A stretch of DNA of 17,777 nucleotides. Origin: a virus. This document shows, piece by piece, positions 50 to 15,075 of the stretch. The translations under genes were made by a program, and so were the position numbers. Every line of letters begins with the position of its first letter. Position 1 is the stretch's first letter. The notes under the pieces are model-generated. The model saw nothing but the letters and a program-made list of their open reading frames with translations. It was not told the origin of the DNA and did no database searches. The stretch is taken from UHGV virus genome UHGV-1442331; one strand, written 5' to 3'.

Positions 50-510
50 CTTCTAACGTTGTGTATGGTAAGAAAACTGGTAACACCCCAGACGGTCGTC
101 GTGCTGGCGCGCCGTTCGGACCGGGTGCTAACCCGATGCACGGTCGTGACCAGAAAGGTGCTGTAGCGTCTCTGACTTCCGTTGCTAAACTGCCGTTTGC
201 TTACGCTAAAGATGGTATCTCCTACACCTTCTCTATCGTTCCGAACGCACTGGGTAAAGACGACGAAGTTCGTAAGACCAACCTGGCTGGTCTGATGGAT
301 GGTTACTTCCACCACGAAGCATCCATCGAAGGTGGTCAGCACCTGAACGTTAACGTGATGAACCGTGAAATGCTGCTCGACGCGATGGAAAACCCGGAAA
401 AATATCCGCAGCTGACCATCCGTGTATCTGGCTACGCAGTACGTTTCAACTCGCTGACTAAAGAACAGCAGCAGGACGTTATTACTCGTACCTTCACTCA
501 ATCTATGTAA
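50..510 (+). CDS. pflB: Pyruvate formate-lyase (formate C-acetyltransferase) PflB, C-terminal part; 5' end lies outside the window (reading frame starts at 52)
   Basis: Translation ...[37 protein letters not shown]...[31 protein letters not shown] matches the PflB C-terminus including the glycyl-radical motif RVSGYAV. The tracked ORF begins at a GTG inside the true gene. Confidence 0.9.
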
Positions 511-2786: not shown

Positions 2787-5234
2787 TTAACCGTCATGCA
2801 TCATGCTGGCACGGGCGCGCGCACGTTTATCCCGCTCGTATTTTTCGAGCGCATCCTGTAACTGGCGGTCAAGCTGTGTTCCCGGCGCAGAACCACCCGT
2901 CAGGTTAATGTGATATTCGTTTTTACTCTGGTCCACATAAGAGCGACCAGCCGGTGCCGTGACCGGCTGATAAGCCTGATAGCCTGCATAAGAGCTGGTC
3001 GCCGGAATATAACCACCGGTGCCATACGTGGCGGCATGAGTCCTTGCGGCGGTCTGGTCAAGTGTGTCTGACTCTTTGTTGATAACACCGAGTTTTTCCA
3101 GTACCCAGTCAATACCGCTGCGCAGTTTGTTGAACGCATTAAGCGGCAGCATCAGCGCGTCAGCCAGTGCCTGCCCGAACATGACGCCCGTGTCACGGCA
3201 ACGGTTCAGGGTGTCCTGGGTGGCTTTAACCGGGGCAATCAGGTTTTTAAACCACTGCCACGCGGCCTGTAACTTTTCGCCCAGCCAGTCAAACACCGGT
3301 TTCAGTGGCGTGAACAGCTCCCCCACCGGCGCAAATGCCGCTTTCAGCCCTTCAACCACACCGCCAAAGAATGCGCTGACAGGCTCCCAGTATTTACGGA
3401 TAAGCAACGCCCCGGCGACAATGGCGGCCACCACAGCCACAACCGGCCAGCTAATCGCCCCGATGGCCGTCATAACGGCACTACCAACCGTCGTGAAGAT
3501 TGCCCCCATTGCGCCTGCTGCCGCGATGATGGCATTGATGCCGGTGATAACCGGCCAGGCTACAAGACCAATTGCACCGATGATGCCAGTAAGCGCCAGC
3601 GCACCACCGGCAATGAGGCCAATGGTTGACGCCAGTGATTTGTTTTTCTGTATCCAGCCGTCGAGTTTTAACACATACTTTGTGGCCGTCTGCGTGAGCT
3701 TACGCAGCGCGCCTTCCTGCTGGTCAAACAGGTCAGTCCCCACCGCCTCATAAGCGGACTGAAACTCCTTAAAGTCACCGCCGAGGTTATCCTGCATGAT
3801 TTTAACCAGCTCTTCCGTTTTACCGTCCGAGGCTTTCAGCGTGGCGGTCAGCGTATCCAGTTTTCCGCTTGCTGCCGCTGCCAGTAAAACGTTCGCTGAT
3901 TTCAGGGCTTCCTCACCAAAAATGGTTTTAAGGTATTCCCCCTTCTGAGACGTTCCCAGCTTGTGTTTATCAAAGCTGGCCTGAATCTCTTTCAGAATGG
4001 TGAACAACGGACGCATATTTCCCTTTTTGTCCGAGGTTTTAACGCCAAGCTCTTTGAGTGCATCCCATGCTTTTCCAGTCGGTGCCTGTAATCGGGTGAC
4101 AACGGCACTGCTACCCGTACCCGCCATTGACCCCCTGATGTTATTGTCATGCAGCACACCTGTCATGGCCGCTGCCTGCTCAAGACTTACACCTGCCGTC
4201 CTCGCAACCGGCCCGAGGTAAGTCAGTGCATCACTGAGCCCCTGAAAATCAGCCGCCGACTTATTCATCGTTGCCGACAACACGTCGCCCACATGGCTGA
4301 CATCATCATTTGACAGTTGAAAGGATGCCTTAGTCCCCAGCAACAGTTGCGCGTTTTCTTCCATCGACCGCTGATTCGCCAGTGCCATATTCAGCGTGAC
4401 CGGCGTTGCCGCCTGAATAGCCGCAGCATCTCCACCCGCTTTCGCAATGATAATCTGCGCACCGGCCGCATCATCCGCCGAGGCGGCGGTATTATCGCCG
4501 AGCTGGCGCGCCTGCTTGCGTAGTGCAGCCATTTCGGCGGAGTCTTTTGCCACACCGAGCACAGCCTGCAATTCTGAGTTTTTCTGCGCAAACTCATAAC
4601 CGGGCATCAGTAGCTTAACACCGGCCATCGTTCCCGCCGCCGCAATCCCCACACCGGCAGCGCCCACTGAGGCCATATTTCCGGCCAGTTCCTTTCCGGC
4701 CTGATAACGCTGTTTGACTGCGTTAAGTTTTGCCTGTTGCGCACTGACACGCGCCAGCGCGTCGCGCTGACGGTTAAGCTGTGCGGTGGTTTCACTGATA
4801 CGGTTTTTCAGTCCCTGCTCATCATGTGCAAGATTGCGGGTATTAATTCCCACAGCGGCCAGTTCCCGCTGCTGGCGTTTAACGGAATCCGTCAGGCGGT
4901 TATATTTCGCCTGTAAGTCCTCCGCCGCACGCTTTGCGGATTCCAGCACTTTCGCCTGAGCACGTGTCGGACGTTCGGTGTTTTTAAACTGTGTGGCAAG
5001 GGCTTCGGCTTCCTGCCGCGCCTTTTCAAGTGCATGACCAGTCACGGCGAGCTGTGCACTGGTCTTGCGAAATCCCTCAATACGGGATGCCTGACCGTTC
5101 AGCTCGCGCAGTGATTTTTGTGTTTCCCGGATATCCCCCGACAGCGACTTGCTCGCTGTACGGATGGATTTAAACGGGCGGGATGCCTGGTCAACAGCCC
5201 TGAGCAATACCTGTAATTTTACATTGTTACTCAT
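2787..5234 (-). CDS. T: Tail tape measure protein (P2 gpT, 815 aa)
   Basis: 815-aa ORF, the same length as P2 gpT, with a coiled-coil N-terminal half, Ala/Gly-rich hydrophobic middle and conserved C-terminus. Confidence 0.9.
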   Translation of the reverse strand: MSNNVKLQVLLRAVDQASRPFKSIRTASKSLSGDIRETQKSLRELNGQASRIEGFRKTSAQLAVTGHALEKARQEAEALATQFKNTERPTRAQAKVLESAKRAAEDLQAKYNRLTDSVKRQQRELAAVGINTRNLAHDEQGLKNRISETTAQLNRQRDALARVSAQQAKLNAVKQRYQAGKELAGNMASVGAAGVGIAAAGTMAGVKLLMPGYEFAQKNSELQAVLGVAKDSAEMAALRKQARQLGDNTAASADDAAGAQIIIAKAGGDAAAIQAATPVTLNMALANQRSMEENAQLLLGTKASFQLSNDDVSHVGDVLSATMNKSAADFQGLSDALTYLGPVARTAGVSLEQAAAMTGVLHDNNIRGSMAGTGSSAVVTRLQAPTGKAWDALKELGVKTSDKKGNMRPLFTILKEIQASFDKHKLGTSQKGEYLKTIFGEEALKSANVLLAAAASGKLDTLTATLKASDGKTEELVKIMQDNLGGDFKEFQSAYEAVGTDLFDQQEGALRKLTQTATKYVLKLDGWIQKNKSLASTIGLIAGGALALTGIIGAIGLVAWPVITGINAIIAAAGAMGAIFTTVGSAVMTAIGAISWPVVAVVAAIVAGALLIRKYWEPVSAFFGGVVEGLKAAFAPVGELFTPLKPVFDWLGEKLQAAWQWFKNLIAPVKATQDTLNRCRDTGVMFGQALADALMLPLNAFNKLRSGIDWVLEKLGVINKESDTLDQTAARTHAATYGTGGYIPATSSYAGYQAYQPVTAPAGRSYVDQSKNEYHINLTGGSAPGTQLDRQLQDALEKYERDKRARARASMMHDG

Positions 5235-5654
5235 TCGTGTTTCCGCTTCGCCGGAGCGCCTTTTCGCGCCATGTGATGAGTTCGGTCAGGCTCATGGGAT
5301 ACAGTTCTGATGGCGGCCAGTGAAATACCACTGCCACATCCGCCATCAGGTCATCGACCGAGAGATTTTTTGGAAACGTCACTGCACCGAGTTCGGCGAC
5401 AAAAAACCGACCACCTTACCGGCCAGCGCCACAAGGTCAGGCAGTTCCAGCGCGGCGACTTCCTGCTCGGTCAGCATCGGTGCCGTCATGCGCGGCAGCA
5501 CCTTAATCAGTGCATCGACTTCGGAGTTCGCGACCGCTGCCAGACTGACACCACGCAGCGTCCCGGCATTGGGTTTCATCAGCGTGACCTGTTCGATAAC
5601 CTGCTCACCACGTTTGACCGGATTGTCCAGGGTAATGACATTTTCTTTGTTCAT
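5227..5654 (-). CDS. E+E': Tail assembly chaperone E+E' (142 aa), made by a programmed -1 ribosomal frameshift
   Basis: Hand translation in the -1 frame from the slippery site continues ...VAELGAVTFPKNLSVDDLMADVAVVFHWPPSELYPMSLTELITWREKALRRSGNTNE and stops at 5227-5229, giving 142 aa. The end overlaps the T start. Confidence 0.8.
5379..5654 (-). CDS. E: Tail assembly chaperone E (P2 gpE, 91 aa), zero-frame product
   Basis: 91-aa ORF MNKENVITLDNPVKRGEQVIEQVTLMKPNAGTLRGV... directly upstream of T, as in P2. Confidence 0.9.
   Translation of the reverse strand: MNKENVITLDNPVKRGEQVIEQVTLMKPNAGTLRGVSLAAVANSEVDALIKVLPRMTAPMLTEQEVAALELPDLVALAGKVVGFLSPNSVQ
5400..5406 (-). other. Slippery heptamer T-TTT-TTG for the E/E' -1 frameshift
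   Basis: Minus strand reads GGT TTT TTG (G-F-L) in the E frame, near the 3' end of E; this is the canonical tail-chaperone frameshift signal. Confidence 0.8.
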
Positions 5655-5710: not shown

Positions 5711-6229
5711 TCACAGGCCGATATTGCGGCGGTGTTGCTCCAGCCGGTCGACGCCGTTCACCTTCTCAATCATGTTGATGGTGTCAATTTCGACCAGCTC
5801 CTTACCGTCCATCGTCAGCCGGAAATAAGTGCAGACCACGGAGATTTTCGACTCGGTATCTTCTCCCTGTTTCCCCTCGCCGGTGTCGATTTCTTTCTGA
5901 CGTCCACGCATGACCACCTCGACGGCCACCGTTTCGCCGGTATCGTCGCGCTGGTAAGAGCCTGCAAAACGAATCGGTACGGCATCCACACCGGTTGCGG
6001 CGTAAAGTTCCCAGATAACCGAATCCGGGAAGCCCCCGAGCGACCACTCCATTGACAGCGCATCGTCATCAAGGCCGAGGTCTACCGGTGCGCTGCCGTT
6101 CATCCCCGCACCGCGATAGTTTTCGAGCTTACGGGTCAGTTTTGGCAGCGTGACGGACTTTGCAACGCCCTGATAGCTGTAGCCGTTCAGAAAGACGTTC
6201 ATTAACTTGAGTTTGCGCGGCATTGCCAT
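5711..6229 (-). CDS. FII: Tail tube protein FII (172 aa)
   Basis: 172-aa ORF matching P2 gpFII in sequence and length. Confidence 0.9.
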   Translation of the reverse strand: MAMPRKLKLMNVFLNGYSYQGVAKSVTLPKLTRKLENYRGAGMNGSAPVDLGLDDDALSMEWSLGGFPDSVIWELYAATGVDAVPIRFAGSYQRDDTGETVAVEVVMRGRQKEIDTGEGKQGEDTESKISVVCTYFRLTMDGKELVEIDTINMIEKVNGVDRLEQHRRNIGL

Positions 6230-6241
6230 CGGTCAGGCTCC

Positions 6242-7432
6242 TTAATTGCTGTTAACCGAGGTGACCAGATTTGCCAGATATTTATCAGTAATACGCTGGC
6301 GCAGGGTCAGGTTTTCGAGAGGAGGCACCGGGGTATAGTCATAGTCGATATACAGTTTTCCGGCCTTGAGGGTTTCCGCATCGTTGGATTCTTCGCTGAA
6401 CCAGCAGGTCGCATCCACGATATAGCCGTTTGTTTTCAGCTCACGGAATTTGGCATTGATGCCGTCAACGATGTCGCGAATCAGCGTTGCGGTGATGGGC
6501 TTATCCACCGCCCACATGTGCGCCTCAGCCATCGTGTCGGCCAGCACCTGCGCGGTGCGGGTGTAGTTTTCAAAGAGGAACAGTGGGTCATCAGAGCAGG
6601 TACGGTTACCCCAGAAGCGGAAACCGTCACGGCGAATCAGCGTTGTGACACCTGCCTCGTTCAGCAGGTCAGCATCGGTGCCGGACTCCTGCAAATCCCA
6701 GAATACAGAGGCGCTGATGCCGGTAACACCGTTTACCCCGACATTGGACAGCGTTTTATGCCAGCCCTGCTCCTGGTCGATTTTAGCGCGCAGACCCAGC
6801 GCACGGGCGGTGGCATACGCGGTGGCGGTGGTGCTGCTGACCGTATCCCATGCGAGGAAATCCGGCCAGATGACCATCAGCTCACGCTGGCTGAAATTCT
6901 GGCGGTAGGCTTTCACCTCGGAAATGGTTTTACAGCCCCATGCGCTGATATACCCGAAAGCGCGCAGCTTCTGACAGACTGATGCCAGTGCAACAGCCAC
7001 CTCTTTGGTGTCCAGTCCCGGCACGCCGAGAATACGCGGTTTAACACCGGTTACCGACTCCGCCGCCAGCAGGGCTTTCAGTCCGGTGTACTGACCGTTT
7101 TCGTCGGTGGTGCCGATGATATTGGAAACGGTCTGCGCGAGTTTCGTTTCTTCGTCATCGCCGGTGCCGTCTTCCACGCGCACGACAACGGTGACCGGTT
7201 TTGACTGGTCGGCGATGGCCTGCAACGATGCCGCCAGCGTGCCTTTTTTACCGGCCTTTGCAATTGCGCTCTGCACATTGGTAATCAGCACAGGTTTATT
7301 GAGGGGGAAGGTTTCCGCATCCGCATCGCTAGCCGTACAGACCATGCCGACAACGGCAGTGGATACGGTGGAAATGACGCGGGTGCCGTCGTTAATCTCC
7401 AGCACCTGCACGCCATGATGATAGTCACTCAT
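6242..7432 (-). CDS. FI: Contractile tail sheath protein FI (396 aa)
   Basis: 396-aa ORF MSDYHHGVQVLEINDGTRVISTV... matching P2 gpFI in sequence and length. Confidence 0.9.
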   Translation of the reverse strand: MSDYHHGVQVLEINDGTRVISTVSTAVVGMVCTASDADAETFPLNKPVLITNVQSAIAKAGKKGTLAASLQAIADQSKPVTVVVRVEDGTGDDEETKLAQTVSNIIGTTDENGQYTGLKALLAAESVTGVKPRILGVPGLDTKEVAVALASVCQKLRAFGYISAWGCKTISEVKAYRQNFSQRELMVIWPDFLAWDTVSSTTATAYATARALGLRAKIDQEQGWHKTLSNVGVNGVTGISASVFWDLQESGTDADLLNEAGVTTLIRRDGFRFWGNRTCSDDPLFLFENYTRTAQVLADTMAEAHMWAVDKPITATLIRDIVDGINAKFRELKTNGYIVDATCWFSEESNDAETLKAGKLYIDYDYTPVPPLENLTLRQRITDKYLANLVTSVNSN

Positions 7433-7525
7433 CCGTTTAACTCCGTGGTTAATGGGTGCAACTATTTTCTGTTGGGCAGTGCATGAGACGCTATTTGACC
7501 TGGCTGGTCAGTGGATGAAACAACA

Positions 7526-7555
7526 GATAAAGAAAAGGCGGGCAATTTGCCCGCC
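7526..7555 (-). terminator. Rho-independent terminator (minus-strand sense) between the accessory ORF and FI; probable end of the V-to-G late transcript
   Basis: Stem ggcgggc / gcccgcc with a 5-nt loop at 7537-7555, followed on the minus strand by ttttctttat. Confidence 0.5.
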
Positions 7556-7754
7556 TGTCCTGATTTGTACTCACTCATTTTCCGACTGACAATTTACATA
7601 GCCCAAACGCTATCAAATCTGACAGTCTGCTTTGGGTAAACTGATAATGGGCAGAGCTTTGTATGGCTAACTTCAGCATGATACCTTACAGTCAAGCTGA
7701 CAAAAGGCGGAATGATTATTCGTTGATACACATCCTCCTGTAAGGAAACAAAGC

Positions 7755-8525
7755 ATGTATAAAGAACTTATAGAACAGAGACTGAATGAGGCAAAAGCCG
7801 CCAGAGCTGCGCTGAGCAAGACTAATGGTGTAATTGTCGAAAAAACACATAACCCTGACCGCGGACTGTATCTCGTTAATTATGCCAATTTACTTATGAA
7901 CAGGCAGATAGACATCTTCGATGATGCGCTTCTCCTCCTCGAAAACGAACGATACCAAAGCGCTTGTATTGTTAGCCGAGGAATGATTGAAACTCATGCC
8001 TTCTCACGACTCTTAAACAAGAAAGTAGAGAAAATTTTGACTACCCAAAATGGCCACGCAAGTGTAGATAACGCTATCGAAGTTATATTGAACTTTACGA
8101 ATAGTTCTCGATTTAAAAAGTCAGAGCAAGAAAAGATTCAGAAAGGAGTATTTGACCCGAACGACTACATGTTTACTGAGGAGGCTAAATATCGTTTTGA
8201 AAACCTACTTGCTGTCAGTATGCATGTGATGACTGCTTTACGCGAACTCTATAAAGATGAGATGAAGCAGACTAATCAGATGGAAAGTGATTTTGAACTG
8301 ACTTATGACATACTTAGCGAATATGTTCATCCTTCACAAACGAGCATCTACCACTACTACACACCTGAAACCCACTTAGTTCCTACTTCAGTTGGTAATA
8401 TTCATGCTTATGTGCATGCTCAGCTACAATGTGTGAGAGCGCTACTTTTCATATTAGAAGCAAAGAGTCAACATTATTGGTCTACACAGTTAGCAAATGA
8501 GATGACCAAACGAGCTAAAGAGTAA
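7755..8525 (+). CDS. Hypothetical 256-aa soluble protein in the G-FI accessory slot (P2 Z/fun position); candidate phage-exclusion or defence gene
   Basis: ATG preceded by an aagga SD with 8-nt spacing. Opposite strand to every flanking late gene. Hand-counted GC about 33-47% in three 60-nt blocks, against a clearly GC-richer backbone. No TM segments; no domain recognised. Confidence 0.7.
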   Translation: MYKELIEQRLNEAKAARAALSKTNGVIVEKTHNPDRGLYLVNYANLLMNRQIDIFDDALLLLENERYQSACIVSRGMIETHAFSRLLNKKVEKILTTQNGHASVDNAIEVILNFTNSSRFKKSEQEKIQKGVFDPNDYMFTEEAKYRFENLLAVSMHVMTALRELYKDEMKQTNQMESDFELTYDILSEYVHPSQTSIYHYYTPETHLVPTSVGNIHAYVHAQLQCVRALLFILEAKSQHYWSTQLANEMTKRAKE

Positions 8526-8630
8526 GGCCTAAGCCCTGCAATGTGTTTATTTGAAAAATATTTCAATTTTTTCTTTGTATGCTGTAAATGACCTGAGCCC
8601 CTCTGACCAGAGAGCCTTGATGTTATCAAT

Positions 8631-8654
8631 GTCCGCTCTTGGCACAGAGCGGAC
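8631..8654. other. Perfect 8-bp stem hairpin (gtccgctc / gagcggac) in the intergenic region between the accessory ORF and G; no U-tract
   Basis: Inverted repeat seen directly; function unknown. Confidence 0.3.
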
Positions 8655-8715
8655 TGTCAGATTAGGGGTTACTCTGTGTTATAGATATGTGAGCTCACAC
8701 CAGAGTTTATACAGC

Positions 8716-9243
8716 TTATTGTGGCATTTCCGGCCATTCAGGATTTGCAGGATCCACACGACTGACCAGAACGCTGTAGCGTTCCCATGCTTCCAGTCGG
8801 CTGCGTTCCTCATCTGTTGCCATATTCAGCCTGACAGCGCGCTCCAGCGGCAAAATTACGGATTCAGCTTCGGAAAGCAAAGCTGCCTTCTGTAATTCCG
8901 CCTGTTGTTGCTGTTCATCTGCCGTATAAATCCGTTTAACCACAGCACCATCCTTAAACATCCATTTACCTGAGTCGTCAGCACGTCGGTTGGAGGTAAT
9001 ATCAGGAACCTCAACAACGCTAAAACCTTCAGGATTAAGCGTTGAAGCATCTCTGGTGATAGCGACAATAATATTATTTTCATCGTAAACAATCTTTATT
9101 GTGTCTGGCTGAAAGTTCTTCACTTCCTCATACCAGTTTTTTCCGTCTTCGGACCATAACCAGATAACATCAAAATTCTTTGTTAGCTGATATTGCTCTT
9201 TTGTTTTTGGATTACCTGACTTAATGTTCTTTAAATGCTGCAT
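8716..9243 (-). CDS. G: Tail fiber assembly chaperone G (175 aa)
   Basis: 175-aa ORF directly downstream of H, matching P2 gpG in sequence and length. Confidence 0.9.
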
Positions 9244-9246
9244 AAC

Positions 9247-11256
9247 TTACACCTGCGCAACGTTATACCATGTGCCATTGATGTATTTTTGTATCGGCCT
9301 GAAGATGGCTTCATCATCGCCATCCACTTCACCAATGATTCTTAATCCGGTAATCGTGTGTCCGGCTTTTTCATAACGACCACCTCGCGCCATCAATTGA
9401 ACAACTCGCGTACCCAGGCGAACATCTTTCACATAGCGGGAATCAAAATTCCCCCAGTTGCTGGGTTGCATCTGACCGTTAACAGCAAATATTACCGAGT
9501 TATCTGTATTTCGCTGGCTATAGAAATGCCATCCGGCCTCATCGCCTAACTCTGCAACCACTGGACGGGTGGAAGCACCCCATAAATTAAAGGTAATATT
9601 CTTCGTGGATGTGTTAGAGCTGGATAGCGAGAACTTTTTACTATCCCCTGCCTGAATATTTTTAAAAGCAATAGCCACTCCATTCTGAAAACGGAATACT
9701 CGCTGACTGTTAGCATAAACATCAAGAATACCGTCTCCATTCTGTTTAAATCCGGTATCATTATCACCAAGAACAATTGAGCTACCACCTAGTGCATTCG
9801 TCGTACCAACTCCAAAACAGCCATTAATGACGGCATTAACAAGAATATTTAGTGCATCCCATTTCAACGTCATCAGGTCTTTTGTTGTGGTACTCTGGCG
9901 GCTTCTCCATTTGAAATATTCATTGCCGTTATCCCCCGTTTCAAACCACATGTATGAATCAGTGTCACCATCGGCATCATTTTTAAATCCAATCTTCGCC
10001 CAGTCAGTATTTCGAATCCAGGCAAGGATTGAGTCGTTTTCAAAAGTAAGTCCACCGGACAAGGTATCGCCATTTTTTTGCACGGCGTTCCCGGCTCGGT
10101 TTACCGTTTCCTGTAAACCGAGATATTCGATAACGGCGGCAACGGTCGATTTAGCCAGAATATCCCGCCCGACTTTTGTCAGGGTCGCCAGGCTGGCAAC
10201 ATCATTCCCCGTAAAATACGGAAACCTGTCTGCCGCAGTAGCAAGCCCCGCCAGCGCCGTCAAAGTGGCATCTTTCGGTTGCTTACCCGCAAGCGCATTA
10301 GTCATGGTGGTAGCAAAATTCGGGTCATTGCCCAGCGCCGCCGCCAGCTCGTTCAGCGTATTCAGTGCGTCAGGCGACGAGTCTACAAGGGCGGCAATCG
10401 CGGCCATAACGAAAGCCGTGTTTGCGATCTGAGTATTATTCGTTCCCTGTCGCGCAGTTGGCGTCGTTGGCGTTCCGGTCAGTGCAGGGCTGTTTAATGG
10501 CGCTTTTTTGTTCGTTTCATCCATTACCGTCTTAACGGCTTTTGGTGTTGCGGCGAGCGTTTCAGACGTGCTGTTGGTGGCACTACTGAGCTGGACAAGG
10601 CCTTTTCGCGCTGTGGTGGCGTCCTGTGCGGTATATTTCCCGTTAGCCAGGTCATATGCGGCCTTAACCGCTTTCGGCGTTGCAGCCAGTGTTTCAGACG
10701 TGCTGTTGGTCGCACTGCTTAACTGAGTAAAACCTTTTGCGGTCAGCGAGGCGTCCGGGTGACGTCGTGACTGTTCATGTTCTGCAATTTTGTCATCAAC
10801 GTAATCCTGCGTCGCCATCACCGTTGTGGTGTCAATGGTCAGCTCCACTGAGGCCACACTGCTGACGATGATGACCATGCGACAGGTCTGCGAACGCCCT
10901 GAGCCTTCGGCAAGAGCTGGCTTATAACTTTCGGCCATGTTCGCCACGGCAATTAATGTTCCCGCATCATCGTACAGGCCAAGCTCACGCATCCAGAAAC
11001 CGCCCACCTCCGGCGGAATAACCAGCTCTGCGATAATATAATTACTGTTTCGTTTGTCCTGGCTGATTTTGTTCAGCGCATGTCGCCAGACTTCATGGAT
11101 AAGCCCGGTCTGTCCGGCATCCGGGACAGGCAATTTACCACCGCCATCCCCGACGGCCATCGTGGTAATGTTGACCTTCCGCCCTCCCGGCGCGGTTGCC
11201 GCTGCCAGCTTTGCTGCACCGGCAGTGGTGATAACGGTTCTGAATTTTGTGCTCAT
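9247..11256 (-). CDS. H: Tail fiber protein H (669 aa)
   Basis: 669-aa ORF MSTKFRTVITTAGAAKLAAATAPG... matching P2 gpH, including the duplicated QLSSATNSTSETLAATPKAVK motif. Confidence 0.9.
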   Translation of the reverse strand: MSTKFRTVITTAGAAKLAAATAPGGRKVNITTMAVGDGGGKLPVPDAGQTGLIHEVWRHALNKISQDKRNSNYIIAELVIPPEVGGFWMRELGLYDDAGTLIAVANMAESYKPALAEGSGRSQTCRMVIIVSSVASVELTIDTTTVMATQDYVDDKIAEHEQSRRHPDASLTAKGFTQLSSATNSTSETLAATPKAVKAAYDLANGKYTAQDATTARKGLVQLSSATNSTSETLAATPKAVKTVMDETNKKAPLNSPALTGTPTTPTARQGTNNTQIANTAFVMAAIAALVDSSPDALNTLNELAAALGNDPNFATTMTNALAGKQPKDATLTALAGLATAADRFPYFTGNDVASLATLTKVGRDILAKSTVAAVIEYLGLQETVNRAGNAVQKNGDTLSGGLTFENDSILAWIRNTDWAKIGFKNDADGDTDSYMWFETGDNGNEYFKWRSRQSTTTKDLMTLKWDALNILVNAVINGCFGVGTTNALGGSSIVLGDNDTGFKQNGDGILDVYANSQRVFRFQNGVAIAFKNIQAGDSKKFSLSSSNTSTKNITFNLWGASTRPVVAELGDEAGWHFYSQRNTDNSVIFAVNGQMQPSNWGNFDSRYVKDVRLGTRVVQLMARGGRYEKAGHTITGLRIIGEVDGDDEAIFRPIQKYINGTWYNVAQV
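10531..10725. repeat. Imperfect ~63-bp direct repeat (two copies, ~133 bp apart) inside H, encoding the duplicated peptide QLSSATNSTSETLAATPKAVK
   Basis: Copies at about 10531-10593 and 10664-10725 aligned by hand, roughly 83% identical; mirrored by the plus-strand ORF 10508..10726 showing LTAFGVAASVSDVLLVALL twice. Confidence 0.75.
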
Positions 11257-12702: not shown

Positions 12703-13050
12703 TCAACTCACAGGGATGGTTAACGAAAGTGGCTGGCCGGTGTCGTTGTGCTGGCCGGTTAACGTGACCGTCATTCGCCCGTCAAAACTGCGCTCAGTGG
12801 TGACGGATGACAGGGTGACGCGGGGTTCCCATTTCAGCACCGCCATGTAACAGGCGACCTTAATCTGCAACTCAAGCGCCGGGGTCTGCGGCTGGTCAAT
12901 CATTGATGCCAGCAACGAGCCGTAATCACGACGCATCACCCGTGAGCCGACCGGTGTGCGCAGGATATCGCCGATACTCTGGCTGATATGCTCAAGGTCA
13001 GTGACAGTCAGGCCATCACTGCGATTCATTCCGAGATAACGCGCTGTCAT
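12703..13050 (-). CDS. W: Baseplate wedge protein W (115 aa, gp25-like)
   Basis: 115-aa ORF matching P2 gpW length and position. Confidence 0.85.
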   Translation of the reverse strand: MTARYLGMNRSDGLTVTDLEHISQSIGDILRTPVGSRVMRRDYGSLLASMIDQPQTPALELQIKVACYMAVLKWEPRVTLSSVTTERSFDGRMTVTLTGQHNDTGQPLSLTIPVS

Positions 13051-13682
13051 AAAGGACTCCCGGTTGTGCCGCCGCTGTCGCCGGGGTGTTTATGGGTATG
13101 CAGTACCTTACCGTTTGATGAGAGTTCACCGCCGGTGTGTTCAATGTTGCCGCGCATCGTCCCGCCCTTCTGCACTTCCAGCGTGCCGGTAATCAGCCTG
13201 TTGGTGCAGACCACCTCCGGGGTGTCCAGGGTGACGCGGGTTGATGCTTTCACCATGACCACCGGCACCGTGGCAGTAACAGAATCAGAAGCCGTCACGC
13301 TGGCCGTTTTAATTCCGCTTACCGTGAGTGCACTGGTTTCGGGTTCATATTCAATCACCGCCCCGTCAGGGAAACGGATATGCAGGGCATCCGCCGACAC
13401 AGACGGCGAGGGGTTATCGCCGGAATAAATCCCCGGCAGAACGAACGCCGTGTCGAGTTCACCGCCCACGGCCAGAATCAGCACCTGCTCCCCCACGGAA
13501 GGTGCCCACCATGTGCGCGAACGACCGGCACGATGGGTCAGCCACTGAAGCCAGTCAGTGCACATGCCGCCGGTCTGCACACGGCAGCGACCGGCGTTAA
13601 GGTCGGTTTCGACGATAATGCCGGTGCGAATCATGTTGCGCAGTGCGCGCGCGAGTTCCTGAATATTTGCGAGAGTGTTCAT
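13047..13682 (-). CDS. V: Baseplate spike/assembly protein V (211 aa from the internal Met)
   Basis: MNTLANIQELARALRNMIRTGIIVETDLNAGRCRV... matches P2 gpV. The track ORF starts 6 codons earlier (13700); the 211-aa start is chosen to match P2. Confidence 0.85.
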   Translation of the reverse strand: MNTLANIQELARALRNMIRTGIIVETDLNAGRCRVQTGGMCTDWLQWLTHRAGRSRTWWAPSVGEQVLILAVGGELDTAFVLPGIYSGDNPSPSVSADALHIRFPDGAVIEYEPETSALTVSGIKTASVTASDSVTATVPVVMVKASTRVTLDTPEVVCTNRLITGTLEVQKGGTMRGNIEHTGGELSSNGKVLHTHKHPGDSGGTTGSPL

Positions 13683-13765
13683 GCATGTGAGATTGCACAA
13701 TATATAAAAGTTATGCTATCTGGATTCATTTGTAGAACTACCAGACAACATTCAAGGAGAGCGTA

Positions 13766-14551
13766 ATGGTCAGCTATAATGTGACTAATGTGTGGGGGCT
13801 AATCGTTTTTTTCCTTTGTAGCTTTGCAGTATTAGCATTTTTTAGCTTTGGTAAAAGTAACCTTATGAGGCTTATTGCACATTATTTCAATTTTGGATAT
13901 TCAGACAAAAAATTAAAAAGACTTGACCGCGAGTGGCGCGACATTCAACTATTTAAAATAATTAACGGAATCAATGTATCAGGCATTGAAAATGTGAGAA
14001 TGATACAGCAGGGACTGATTGATGGAAAACTAAAAACATCGTATTTTTTCCTTACTCGCATCTGGGGTGACATAACAAAACCACCACACATAATTAAAAC
14101 AATAATTGTAATTCTGGCCAGTATTTTTTACATTCTCCTCGCATGTTATATACACAACAAACAATCCGCTATAGTAAGAGATGCCATAGGCATACCATAT
14201 AAAAATATGATGTACTATGTTTATAGTGACAAAGTTCTTTTATCCTTCAACAATAAAACAGTTGAATTCAATAAAACTTATAGCCTTGCCGATTGCAAGA
14301 GACTGCAAAACGTATTTATAAAAGACACACTTCCTGAGATCGCCTGCAATAAGCTCTTACAGCTAAACGAGGAGGACTCCGAATGGTTAAGCCAGGAGAT
14401 TAAAGATAATAACAGTCACAAAAAAGCATTATTAATACTATCCCTCGTCTATTTCACTTCAGGTCTGGTTATATTCCTGTCATATACAAAATTCTTTTAC
14501 GCCAATAAGAAGGTTTTAGAATACAAAGCATCAAATAAAAATCACTCATAA
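13766..14551 (+). CDS. Hypothetical 261-aa integral membrane protein (three predicted TM helices) in the S-V accessory slot (P2 orf30 position); candidate lysogenic-conversion, exclusion or defence gene
   Basis: ATG preceded by a strong aaggaga SD with 5-nt spacing. Opposite strand to the late genes. Hand-counted GC about 23-38% in three 60-nt blocks versus about 65% in a block of V. Hydrophobic stretches VWGLIVFFLCSFAVLAFFSF, IIKTIIVILASIFYILLACYI and ALLILSLVYFTSGLVIFLSY. Confidence 0.75.
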   Translation: MVSYNVTNVWGLIVFFLCSFAVLAFFSFGKSNLMRLIAHYFNFGYSDKKLKRLDREWRDIQLFKIINGINVSGIENVRMIQQGLIDGKLKTSYFFLTRIWGDITKPPHIIKTIIVILASIFYILLACYIHNKQSAIVRDAIGIPYKNMMYYVYSDKVLLSFNNKTVEFNKTYSLADCKRLQNVFIKDTLPEIACNKLLQLNEEDSEWLSQEIKDNNSHKKALLILSLVYFTSGLVIFLSYTKFFYANKKVLEYKASNKNHS

Positions 14552-14622: not shown

Positions 14623-15075
14623 CTAACGCTCAAGGTGAGCCAGGATAATCTCTTCAATCATCTGCACATCCTCACCGGTAAAGCCGAGCAGAGGACGCGC
14701 CGGATAATCAATTTTCTTACCGTCTTTCCGGGTTTCTTCCGACAGACCGAACTGATGCACACTGGCGATTTTCGGCGACTTCCCGCCGTAAAATTCCATT
14801 GATGCCTGTTCCGGGCTGGCACGGATATGCAAAAAACGACTGGTGATAAGTTTCGCAAACATTTTTCGCTTAACACGACCGGTCTTTTTTCTGGCGCTCT
14901 GCTGCTGGCGTGGCGCGTAGGGTGTGCCGTCCGGGGCTTTCTGTGCCATCACCCGACGCTGCTGACTCTGCCGCAGACGCTTCGCCAGCTCTGCACTCAG
15001 CCGCCGACGCCCTGACGGTGACAGCGACTCAATCAGTCCGGTCAGCCGGTCTTCAAAACGCTTAAACTCATTCAT
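14623..15075 (-). CDS. S: Tail completion protein S (150 aa)
   Basis: 150-aa ORF matching P2 gpS length and position downstream of R. Confidence 0.85.
   Translation of the reverse strand: MNEFKRFEDRLTGLIESLSPSGRRRLSAELAKRLRQSQQRRVMAQKAPDGTPYAPRQQQSARKKTGRVKRKMFAKLITSRFLHIRASPEQASMEFYGGKSPKIASVHQFGLSEETRKDGKKIDYPARPLLGFTGEDVQMIEEIILAHLER

Follow-up and report, generated by a model that had tools for sequence, protein, structure and literature searches.

The stretch of DNA analyzed here (hereinafter the window) consists of 17,777 nucleotides of UHGV virus genome UHGV-1442331 and comes from a P2-like (Peduovirus) prophage, of which it covers the late-gene half; the late genes are on the minus strand. 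Between G, the last gene of the V-W-J-I-H-G operon, and FI, the first gene of the next late operon, there is a plus-strand gene, hereinafter the cargo gene, that encodes a 256-amino-acid protein; beyond it, in the direction of late transcription, come a strong hairpin, which we denote tV, and pF, the promoter of the FI operon (Table 1). The regions on both sides of the insert are 90-95% identical to those of phages P2, WPhi, L-413C and HQ103, and the central ~1 kb has no match in the phage collection. The GC content is 37-41% across positions 7600-8600 versus 55-60% in FI and the late genes, and the presence, between G and FI, of cargo that is variable among near-identical phages and AT-rich compared to the backbone identifies the interval as a hot spot, namely, the one that has been designated 'moron position 2' of the P2-like phages (PMC3573123).

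When the late-sense strand between the G stop codon (position 8716) and FI was scanned permissively for hairpins followed by T-tracts, tV, with a free energy of -18.3 kcal/mol, was the only strong site; the energies of the three other candidates were low (-5.8 to -6.8), and their tails were poor. The first-pass annotation of this DNA had placed the sole strong late-sense terminator past G at 7526-7555, on the far side of the cargo open reading frame (ORF), and both the location and, essentially, the coordinates are borne out. In a consensus scan of the whole window, AGGCGGGCAaatTGCCCGCCT + TTTCTTTATC (minus strand, stem 7556-7536) ranked first among 21 terminator-like sites; the fold has an energy of -20.5 kcal/mol (z = -4.8), and none of the 200 shuffled sequences was equally stable. 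On the minus strand, the U-rich tract TTTTCTTTAT immediately follows the stem, so tV combines the features of an intrinsic terminator, that is, a GC-rich stem more stable than its shuffles, a U-tract, a position at the end of an operon and structural conservation. A scan of positions 7300-8900 against Rfam produced a single sub-threshold chance match, on the terminator itself.

The comparison of 80 related loci, collected from IMG/VR with FI as the query, clarifies the origin of this hairpin. In seven of these loci, the G-FI interval is empty (128-152 nt), and in all seven, a spacer of 4-6 nt separates the G stop codon from the tV hairpin with its T-tract, and the pF region comes next. Because the hairpin directly follows G in these empty-site relatives, tV is the ancestral terminator of the V-W-J-I-H-G operon, with Rho-independent termination at this site being predicted from the sequence. 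More diverged relatives keep, in the same position, a hairpin and a T-tract of a different sequence: L012 shows a compensatory change in the stem (GACGGGC/GCCCGTC, G-C to A-T), and L077, L078 and L079 possess different hairpins with T-tracts (aacgggcc...ggcccgtttttttt in L077).

How, then, did the cargo gene come to reside between the operon and its terminator? In all occupied loci, unrelated cargo is enclosed by shared flanks, ~100 nt next to G and ~95 nt next to tV, and over ~88 nt, these two flanks form imperfect inverted repeats (alignment score of 26 compared to 6.5 +/- 1.1, with a maximum of 10, for shuffles). The best-conserved core of the repeats is AATCTGACAGTCYGCTYTG, and the termini are TGTA...TACA; in the window, the inner hairpin part of the FI-side repeat is deleted. 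The empty sites have the sequence CAATAAA(C/T) followed by ACAGGCGGGC, and the occupied sites consist of CAATAAGT, the element (TGTA...TACA), AATCAGG and ACAGGCGGGC, such that the two kinds of sites agree base for base outside a 7-bp duplication. The heptamers that border the element match at 5 of the 7 positions in the window (in P2, they are AATAAGT and AATCAGG), and since the geometry fits the empty sites exactly, we take them to be a diverged 7-bp target duplication; the FI-side heptamer was placed by sequence comparison, given that automated refinement of the element ends misplaces the end on this side. Thus, the cargo gene probably is carried by a 1.15-kb non-autonomous element (7566-8713) that was inserted at the G stop codon, 2 nt from the tV hairpin, and the insertion of this repeat-bounded cassette accounts for the location of the cargo between G and tV. 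All P2-like copies share the degenerate heptamers and the P2-type repeats, so the simplest history would involve a single old insertion, ancestral to all occupied P2-like phages, that was followed by swapping of the cargo.

The invertible segments of the Hin/Gin type were considered as a source of the flanks and rejected inasmuch as the loci that carry an invertase gene form a separate class without these flanks. In this class of P2-like loci (L004, L006, L008, L009, L017, L028, L029 and others), the 3' end of the invertase gene, as read from the DNA, apparently abuts pF, replacing the tV hairpin.

The repeats are also found away from P2-like genomes. An exact scan for the 19-nt core revealed about 20 loci in Enterobacterales, almost none of which contain G or FI nearby, and a profile of the repeat detects inverted pairs 0.7-6.3 kb apart. 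Eight elements outside P2 are bounded by perfect 7-bp duplications (AATAATT, CTTAATA, CACTATT, GCTAATA, GCTAACT, CATAATT, GCTAAGG and TATTAGC); they come from Kosakonia, Acinetobacter, Klebsiella, Pantoea, Yersinia, E. coli and one metagenome-assembled genome of an uncultured bacterium, are located in chromosomal islands and on plasmids, and have no P2 genes in their vicinity. Repeats of ~88 nt with TGT...ACA ends and a 7-bp duplication were observed at L083, L099, L113, L115, L117, L119, L121 and L122. The cargo of the non-P2 elements is varied and includes a cluster of genes for a LysR regulator, an MFS transporter and a dehydrogenase, as well as DUF2971, a CLC channel, a cupin and a nucleotidyltransferase. 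With one non-P2 repeat as the query, matches were found in 1527 of the 5426 complete E. coli genomes, in 1-3 places each, and in 79 plasmids. The matches cover at least 80% of the repeat in 242 of the E. coli genomes, and the weaker ones probably include the flanks of the P2 hot spot, which by themselves occur in 1062 genomes. Both chromosomal copies that were inspected (n = 2) lie in tRNA-linked islands near integrases.

Particularly informative is the tRNA-Ser island of E. coli ws5-3, which harbors a DUF5677 cassette that is 87% identical to that of the window, both repeat cores included, whereas the outer parts of the repeats are just ~70% identical. This distribution of similarity suggests that cargo is exchanged by recombination in the repeat cores, and probably, as far as can be judged from such comparisons, the cargo has been swapped many times and in either orientation. 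A cargo family present in both orientations, which would be a direct sign of inversion or swapping, was not found in the hot-spot sample. Recombination in the cores in either orientation would explain both the location of the terminator beyond the cargo and the mixed orientation of the cargo.

Common to these elements are a 7-bp duplication, often next to a terminator hairpin, and ~88-nt imperfect repeats that have TGT...ACA termini and contain repeated CTGACRG motifs as well as an inner hairpin; the elements are scattered at low copy number over chromosomal islands, plasmids and phages of Enterobacterales. We tentatively suggest, with less than even confidence, that the G-FI hot spot derives from an ancient insertion of a member of an unnamed, undescribed family of non-autonomous cargo carriers, with subsequent exchange of cargo in the repeat cores. 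Nilsson, Karlsson and Haggard-Ljungquist (Mol Biol Evol, 2004) reportedly put forward site-specific recombination as a process acting at this locus, along with connections to other enterobacteria, which may already cover part of this scheme. In published full texts, searches with the repeat sequences returned only chance matches to primers.

Two of the loci, L096 (2425-3585, minus strand) and L098 (375-1535, plus strand), contain genes for an IS30-family transposase (HTH_38 and rve domains). These were rejected as candidates for the cognate transposase because they belong to a separate insertion sequence (IS) that has inserted into the repeat: the IS30-like end TGTGAGTTCAACGGGTCGATGCAAC is found at one point of the inner hairpin, in either orientation, and the same junction sequence is present in L111, L113, L120 and, probably, L089, in other species. 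These junctions suggest that an IS targets this repeat.

The first-pass annotation held that late transcription antisense to the cargo gene is the pattern to be expected of a conversion or exclusion gene, with silencing during lytic growth. We surveyed cargo orientation at the hot spot, where about 50 unrelated cargo families occur in about 45 loci, by counting distinct layouts among the loci that retain G. In the 32 layouts obtained, cargo is co-oriented with the late genes in 18, antisense in 11, including P2 and the window, and mixed in 3, and tV is kept in all of them. Accordingly, cargo is not as a rule antisense, and the presence of the distal terminator does not depend on the orientation. 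The window is one of the 9-10 antisense layouts, out of 11, in which no canonical late-sense terminator precedes the cargo; a convincing one is present in P2 alone, with a marginal case in L060, so the unshielded layout of the window is the common one for antisense cargo. The P2 shield, GAATGGCAAGTG...CACTCGCCATT + TTTGTTTTTT, lies between G and fun(Z), at a site that the P2 record annotates as the terminator of the V operon. Within the respective G-FI intervals, the extra late-sense terminators map to 2245-2271 in P2 (L002) and to 2098-2118 in L060. These two loci share a stem mutation and thus count as a single lineage, and their tV hairpins are the weakest, at -10.7 and -9.6 compared with -16 to -18.5 kcal/mol in the remaining layouts with exclusively antisense cargo. 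Anecdotal as it is, coming from one lineage, this correspondence hints that tV may be in use where there is no shield.

These observations bear on the possibility that the layout is a selected silencing device, in which the cargo gene would be expressed from its own promoter in the lysogen and shut off in lytic growth by read-through from the V operon to the distal terminator, via either interference or antisense RNA. Such a design would be compatible with the convergent arrangement without an intervening canonical intrinsic terminator, a feature shared by most of the antisense cassettes at the hot spot, with the location of the best promoter-like site of the window upstream of the cargo, and with the AT-richness of the cargo, which is typical of P2 conversion genes. 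However, the excess of sense over antisense cargo with the same distal terminator, the shielding of the P2 conversion gene fun(Z), the lack of an evident benefit for a gene at the very end of the operon and the action that Rho is expected to exert on untranslated RNA all argue to the contrary, and the point of cassette insertion fully explains the layout. We therefore find selection for silencing improbable, and the corresponding part of the first-pass annotation lacks support; antisense silencing is partly supported as a possible side effect and is not supported across phages as a design.

Still more doubtful, in our view, is the notion that the tV hairpin is kept mainly for a different role, namely, as an upstream element of pF, as a landing signal for cassettes or as a barrier against transcription of sense cargo in the lysogen. 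The T-tract of tV does abut the Ogr activator site of pF (by alignment to the P2 annotation, the activator site and the start site are at approximately 7497-7526 and 7457, respectively), and the annotated activator site in P2 begins right after the homologous T-tract; 5 of the 7 cassette insertions examined are within about 15 nt of a terminator-like hairpin; and in the loci with sense cargo, nothing but the hairpin separates FI from constitutive transcription of the cargo. Against this, ending the operon is the obvious job for a hairpin that directly follows G in the empty-site phages, the diverged phages conserve a hairpin with a T-tract rather than the sequence, and pF does not need the hairpin given that the invertase-type loci have pF without any hairpin.

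What happens to late transcripts past G is a separate question. The first-pass annotation noted the absence of a U-tract terminator directly after G, and our scan concurs. There is, however, a strong stem-loop 61-84 nt past G (8632-8655; -17.9 kcal/mol, z = -4.8), inside the G-side inverted repeat, with the tail AUUGAUAAC, and extensive structure is predicted for the entire 150 nt that follow G (-48.3 kcal/mol, z = -4.6). From the G stop codon to tV, the late-sense RNA extends for 1159 nt with no plausible translated ORF, and windows with a C/G ratio of 1.5-2.0, in the top 5-10% of the window, are located at 8325-8209 and 8156-8079. This 1.16-kb untranslated stretch is likely to be a substrate for Rho, and the late operons of P2 are subject to Rho-dependent polarity that is suppressed by Psu of P4 (PMC3821671). 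One might propose, accordingly, that late transcription ends soon after G, through Rho, the stem-loop or both, in which case there would be little or no antisense RNA over the cargo gene, and tV would be a redundant relic of the empty site. In addition to the Rho-related features, the compact structure of the first 150 nt and the T-rich tail that the same stem-loop has in L035 and L068 speak for this scheme. Nevertheless, the stem-loop lacks a U-tract in the window and is degenerate in P2 and other phages, which is why, when considered as the actual terminator of the V operon, it was rejected as a canonical terminator, and the initial ~300 nt past G are not C-rich: the patches resembling Rho utilization (rut) sites begin only ~400 nt downstream, within the antisense cargo, so late transcription would cross no less than the 3' half of the cargo gene. 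Moreover, nearly all antisense loci have an intact tV (-16 to -18.5 kcal/mol), and it is weakest in the shielded P2 and L060, anecdotal as this single-lineage case is. An early end of late transcription therefore appears unlikely, albeit considerably less so than a silencing design. Late read-through from G into the cassette is plausible, and our best estimate of its extent is that polymerase would traverse the cargo gene at least in its 3' part, with a fraction released by Rho inside it and the remainder stopping at tV. Of the claim that V-to-G transcripts run antisense across the cargo gene, the absence of a canonical intrinsic terminator shielding the cargo stands, and the stem-loop, the C-over-G patches and the sensitivity of P2 late transcripts to Rho bear on how far such transcripts would run.

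The cargo protein matches DUF5677 and no other family in Pfam and has no match in PADLOC, PHROGs or NCBIfam. The family consists of single-domain proteins of ~256 amino acids and is widespread in Gammaproteobacteria; distant homologues adjoin toxin-antitoxin pairs and H-NS-like genes and are not found in P2 prophages. Specifically, DUF5677 homologues with 60-70% identity in L086 (80-1552) and L088 (95-2443) are next to PhdYeFM-PIN and RelB-ParE genes in non-P2 contexts, and L088 additionally contains an H-NS-like gene. The structural model of the cargo protein is confident, with a predicted local distance difference test score (pLDDT) of 90.4, and all-helical, and the predicted fold may be HEPN-like. 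In an alignment of 32 sequences, there is no invariant pair of arginine and histidine at the spacing of the HEPN Rx4-6H catalytic motif; R75 and E79 are invariant in the family, and H81 of the window protein corresponds to a tyrosine in the family consensus. A DUF5677 gene from Bacillota has been tested and was not among the active anti-phage genes (PMC12632615). By its context only, the cargo gene is a plausible conversion or exclusion gene.

The sigma-70-like promoter that had been suggested for the cargo gene, CTGACA-18-GATAAT, is found exactly at the position given (7619-7648) and, with 10 of the 12 consensus positions, is the top-scoring site of the window; the total number of such sites, however, is no better than in shuffles (16 versus 13.9 +/- 3.5). 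The promoter thus is plausible by position and not proven because the scan finds no excess over shuffles. In the ws5-3 copy, the GATAAT -10 element is conserved, and 18 extra nucleotides, which form the inner hairpin of the repeat, part the core from the -10 element. An 18-nt deletion of this hairpin (window 7632-7650 versus L083 1483-1520) brought CTGACA to 18 nt from GATAAT and produced the near-consensus spacing of the candidate promoter in the window. At the other end of the cargo gene, the ws5-3 copy has a proper cargo-sense terminator, AAGCCCtgcaatGGGCTT + TTTATTTG, which a 3-nt deletion near position 8545 has eliminated in the window (8526-8550 versus L083 2408-2440), so that cargo transcripts may run antisense into G and H.

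Taken together, these findings make it probable that tV is the ancestral terminator of the V operon, that the cargo came to lie upstream of it through cassette insertion, and that any read-through interference is a by-product and not a conserved design. Under this scenario, polymerase leaving G would enter the cassette antisense to the cargo and meet no canonical intrinsic terminator; some late transcripts probably would end inside the cassette, owing to Rho acting on the 1.16 kb of untranslated RNA or to pausing at the stem-loop 8632-8655; those that escape would stop at tV; and interference with cargo expression late in infection would follow as a side effect. Several points weigh against this interpretation. 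The target duplication of the phage copy is degenerate, and hence transposition into the P2 site is deduced from the geometry and from the relatives; among the loci retrieved, no transposase is encoded inside or beside the complete elements, which contain cargo only; the cargo promoter is a consensus match, with a -35/-10 spacing that is not conserved in the ws5-3 copy; and tV could be retained for other reasons, for example, insulation of pF from sense cargo, given the fast turnover of cargo.

Table 1. Features of the window, with the G-FI interval first and the other genes below (TIR, terminal inverted repeat)
Feature	Coordinates	Strand	Evidence or remark
pF, Ogr-dependent late promoter of FI-FII-E-T-U-D	7457-7526	minus	approximate; homology to P2 annotation
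tV T-tract TTTCTTTATC	7526-7535	minus	abuts the pF activator site
tV stem-loop	7536-7556	minus	9-bp stem, 7 G-C pairs, 3-nt loop
FI-side heptamer cctgatt (late-sense AATCAGG)	7559-7565	none	sequence reading against empty sites and P2 heptamers
FI-side TIR	7566-7640	plus	outer end TGTACTCACTC..., core AATCTGACAGTCTGCTTTG at 7616-7634; nhmmer 7564-7640, E = 8e-19
Candidate sigma-70 cargo promoter CTGACA-18-GATAAT	7619-7648	plus	consensus match; -35 inside the repeat core
Cargo gene, 256-aa DUF5677 protein	7755-8525	plus	Pfam, 39 bits versus cut-off of 27.1
Weak AT-rich hairpin TTGAAAaataTTTCAA + T-run, remnant of cargo-sense terminator	8551-8577	plus	
G-side TIR	8625-8713	minus	outer end TGTATAAACTC...; nhmmer 8715-8625, E = 3e-21
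G-side heptamer gcttatt (late-sense AATAAGC)	8714-8720	none	includes the G stop codon
G, tail-fibre assembly, final gene of V operon	8716-9243	minus	Pfam Caudo_TAP, E = 1.5e-36
FI, tail sheath, opens next late operon	6242-7432	minus	Pfam Phage_sheath_1, Phage_sheath_1C, Gp18_domIII_N
ogr	830-1111	minus	Pfam Ogr
D	1130-2293	minus	
U	2293-2772	minus	
T	2787-5234	minus	
E	5379-5654	minus	
FII	5711-6229	minus	
H	9247-11256	minus	Pfam
I, J, W	after H in window order, before V	minus	
V	13047-13700	minus	Pfam
S	14623-15075	minus	Pfam

Elsewhere in the window, a second ORF on the strand opposite to the late genes is located between S and V (13766-14551, plus strand, 261 amino acids, no Pfam match), in a position that we take to be that of orf30 in P2. 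Several promoter-like sites are found inside this ORF, the promoter of V must be in or next to its 5' end, and it has no flanking repeat of the G-FI type. At the other extremity, an ORF with a glycyl-radical domain (61-510, plus strand), possibly GrcA/YfiD judging by its size and domain, is followed by a good plus-strand terminator (797-818) just past ogr; the region 61-818 beyond ogr probably is host DNA and the attR end of the prophage.

The present analysis shows where the V operon of occupied P2-like prophages apparently ends, and a proximal terminator of the P2 type should not be assumed for other members of this group. In the engineering of G-FI payloads in P2-based delivery phages, and in RNA-seq of prophages, late transcription should be expected to enter the insert, with tV as its fixed end point. 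Should the hot spot be a landing pad derived from a transposon, there would be a concrete route for accessory and defence genes between chromosomes, plasmids and P2-like phages, and the repeat profile provides a simple sequence signature for finding such cargo. The cassette family seems to be of more interest than the terminator layout, which by itself is an ordinary moron at the known G-FI position. In the literature that we found, work on P2 hot spots deals mainly with the A-Q locus, with nothing on terminators or orientation at G-FI; recent surveys report an accessory and defence hot spot in the tail genes without a description of terminators and repeats (PMC13586616), and the RNA-seq study of HQ103 analyzed host genes only.

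Antisense cargo at G-FI is already known from two systems, fun(Z) in P2 and neaT in E. coli CFT073. The fun(Z) locus (TO region) of P2 resembles the window in its G-FI position, in AT-rich, non-essential cargo opposite to the late genes, in conserved flanks and in the hairpin, homologous to the distal one, that closely precedes the pF activator site. The cargo is unrelated (the 528-amino-acid Fun(Z) versus the 256-amino-acid DUF5677 protein), and the terminators are reversed in strength: P2 has a proximal late-sense terminator and a degenerate distal hairpin (-10.7 kcal/mol), whereas in the window, the distal hairpin is intact (-18.3 kcal/mol) and a proximal terminator is missing. In CFT073, the neaT moron, carried by the P2-like prophage phi-b0847 (Wiles et al. 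2013, PMC3573123), likewise is a single AT-rich gene between G and FI opposite to the tail genes, which is expressed from its native upstream promoter region (PMC3573123); it differs from the cargo of the window in that it encodes an acyltransferase, and the paper is silent on terminators, read-through and flanking repeats. The classical morons of lambdoid phages, similarly, are extra genes of deviant base composition with a putative promoter of their own between two phage genes, but the unit in the window lacks a good terminator of its own, owing to the 3-nt deletion, and is bounded by ~88-nt inverted repeats and a target duplication. Perhaps the closest parallels to the cassette as such are carriers bounded by TIRs, namely, elements similar to miniature inverted-repeat transposable elements (MITE-like), such as the Tn3-derived inverted-repeat miniature elements (TIMEs) and integron mobilization units, which also combine TIRs and a target-site duplication with varied passengers, no internal transposase and spread over chromosomes, plasmids and phages. 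In contrast to these, the combination of repeats TGTATTAGCTCAG... containing CTGACRG motifs with a 7-bp duplication matches no family that we can name, and the copy number is low, at 1-3 places per matching E. coli genome with the P2-flank and non-P2 types counted together.

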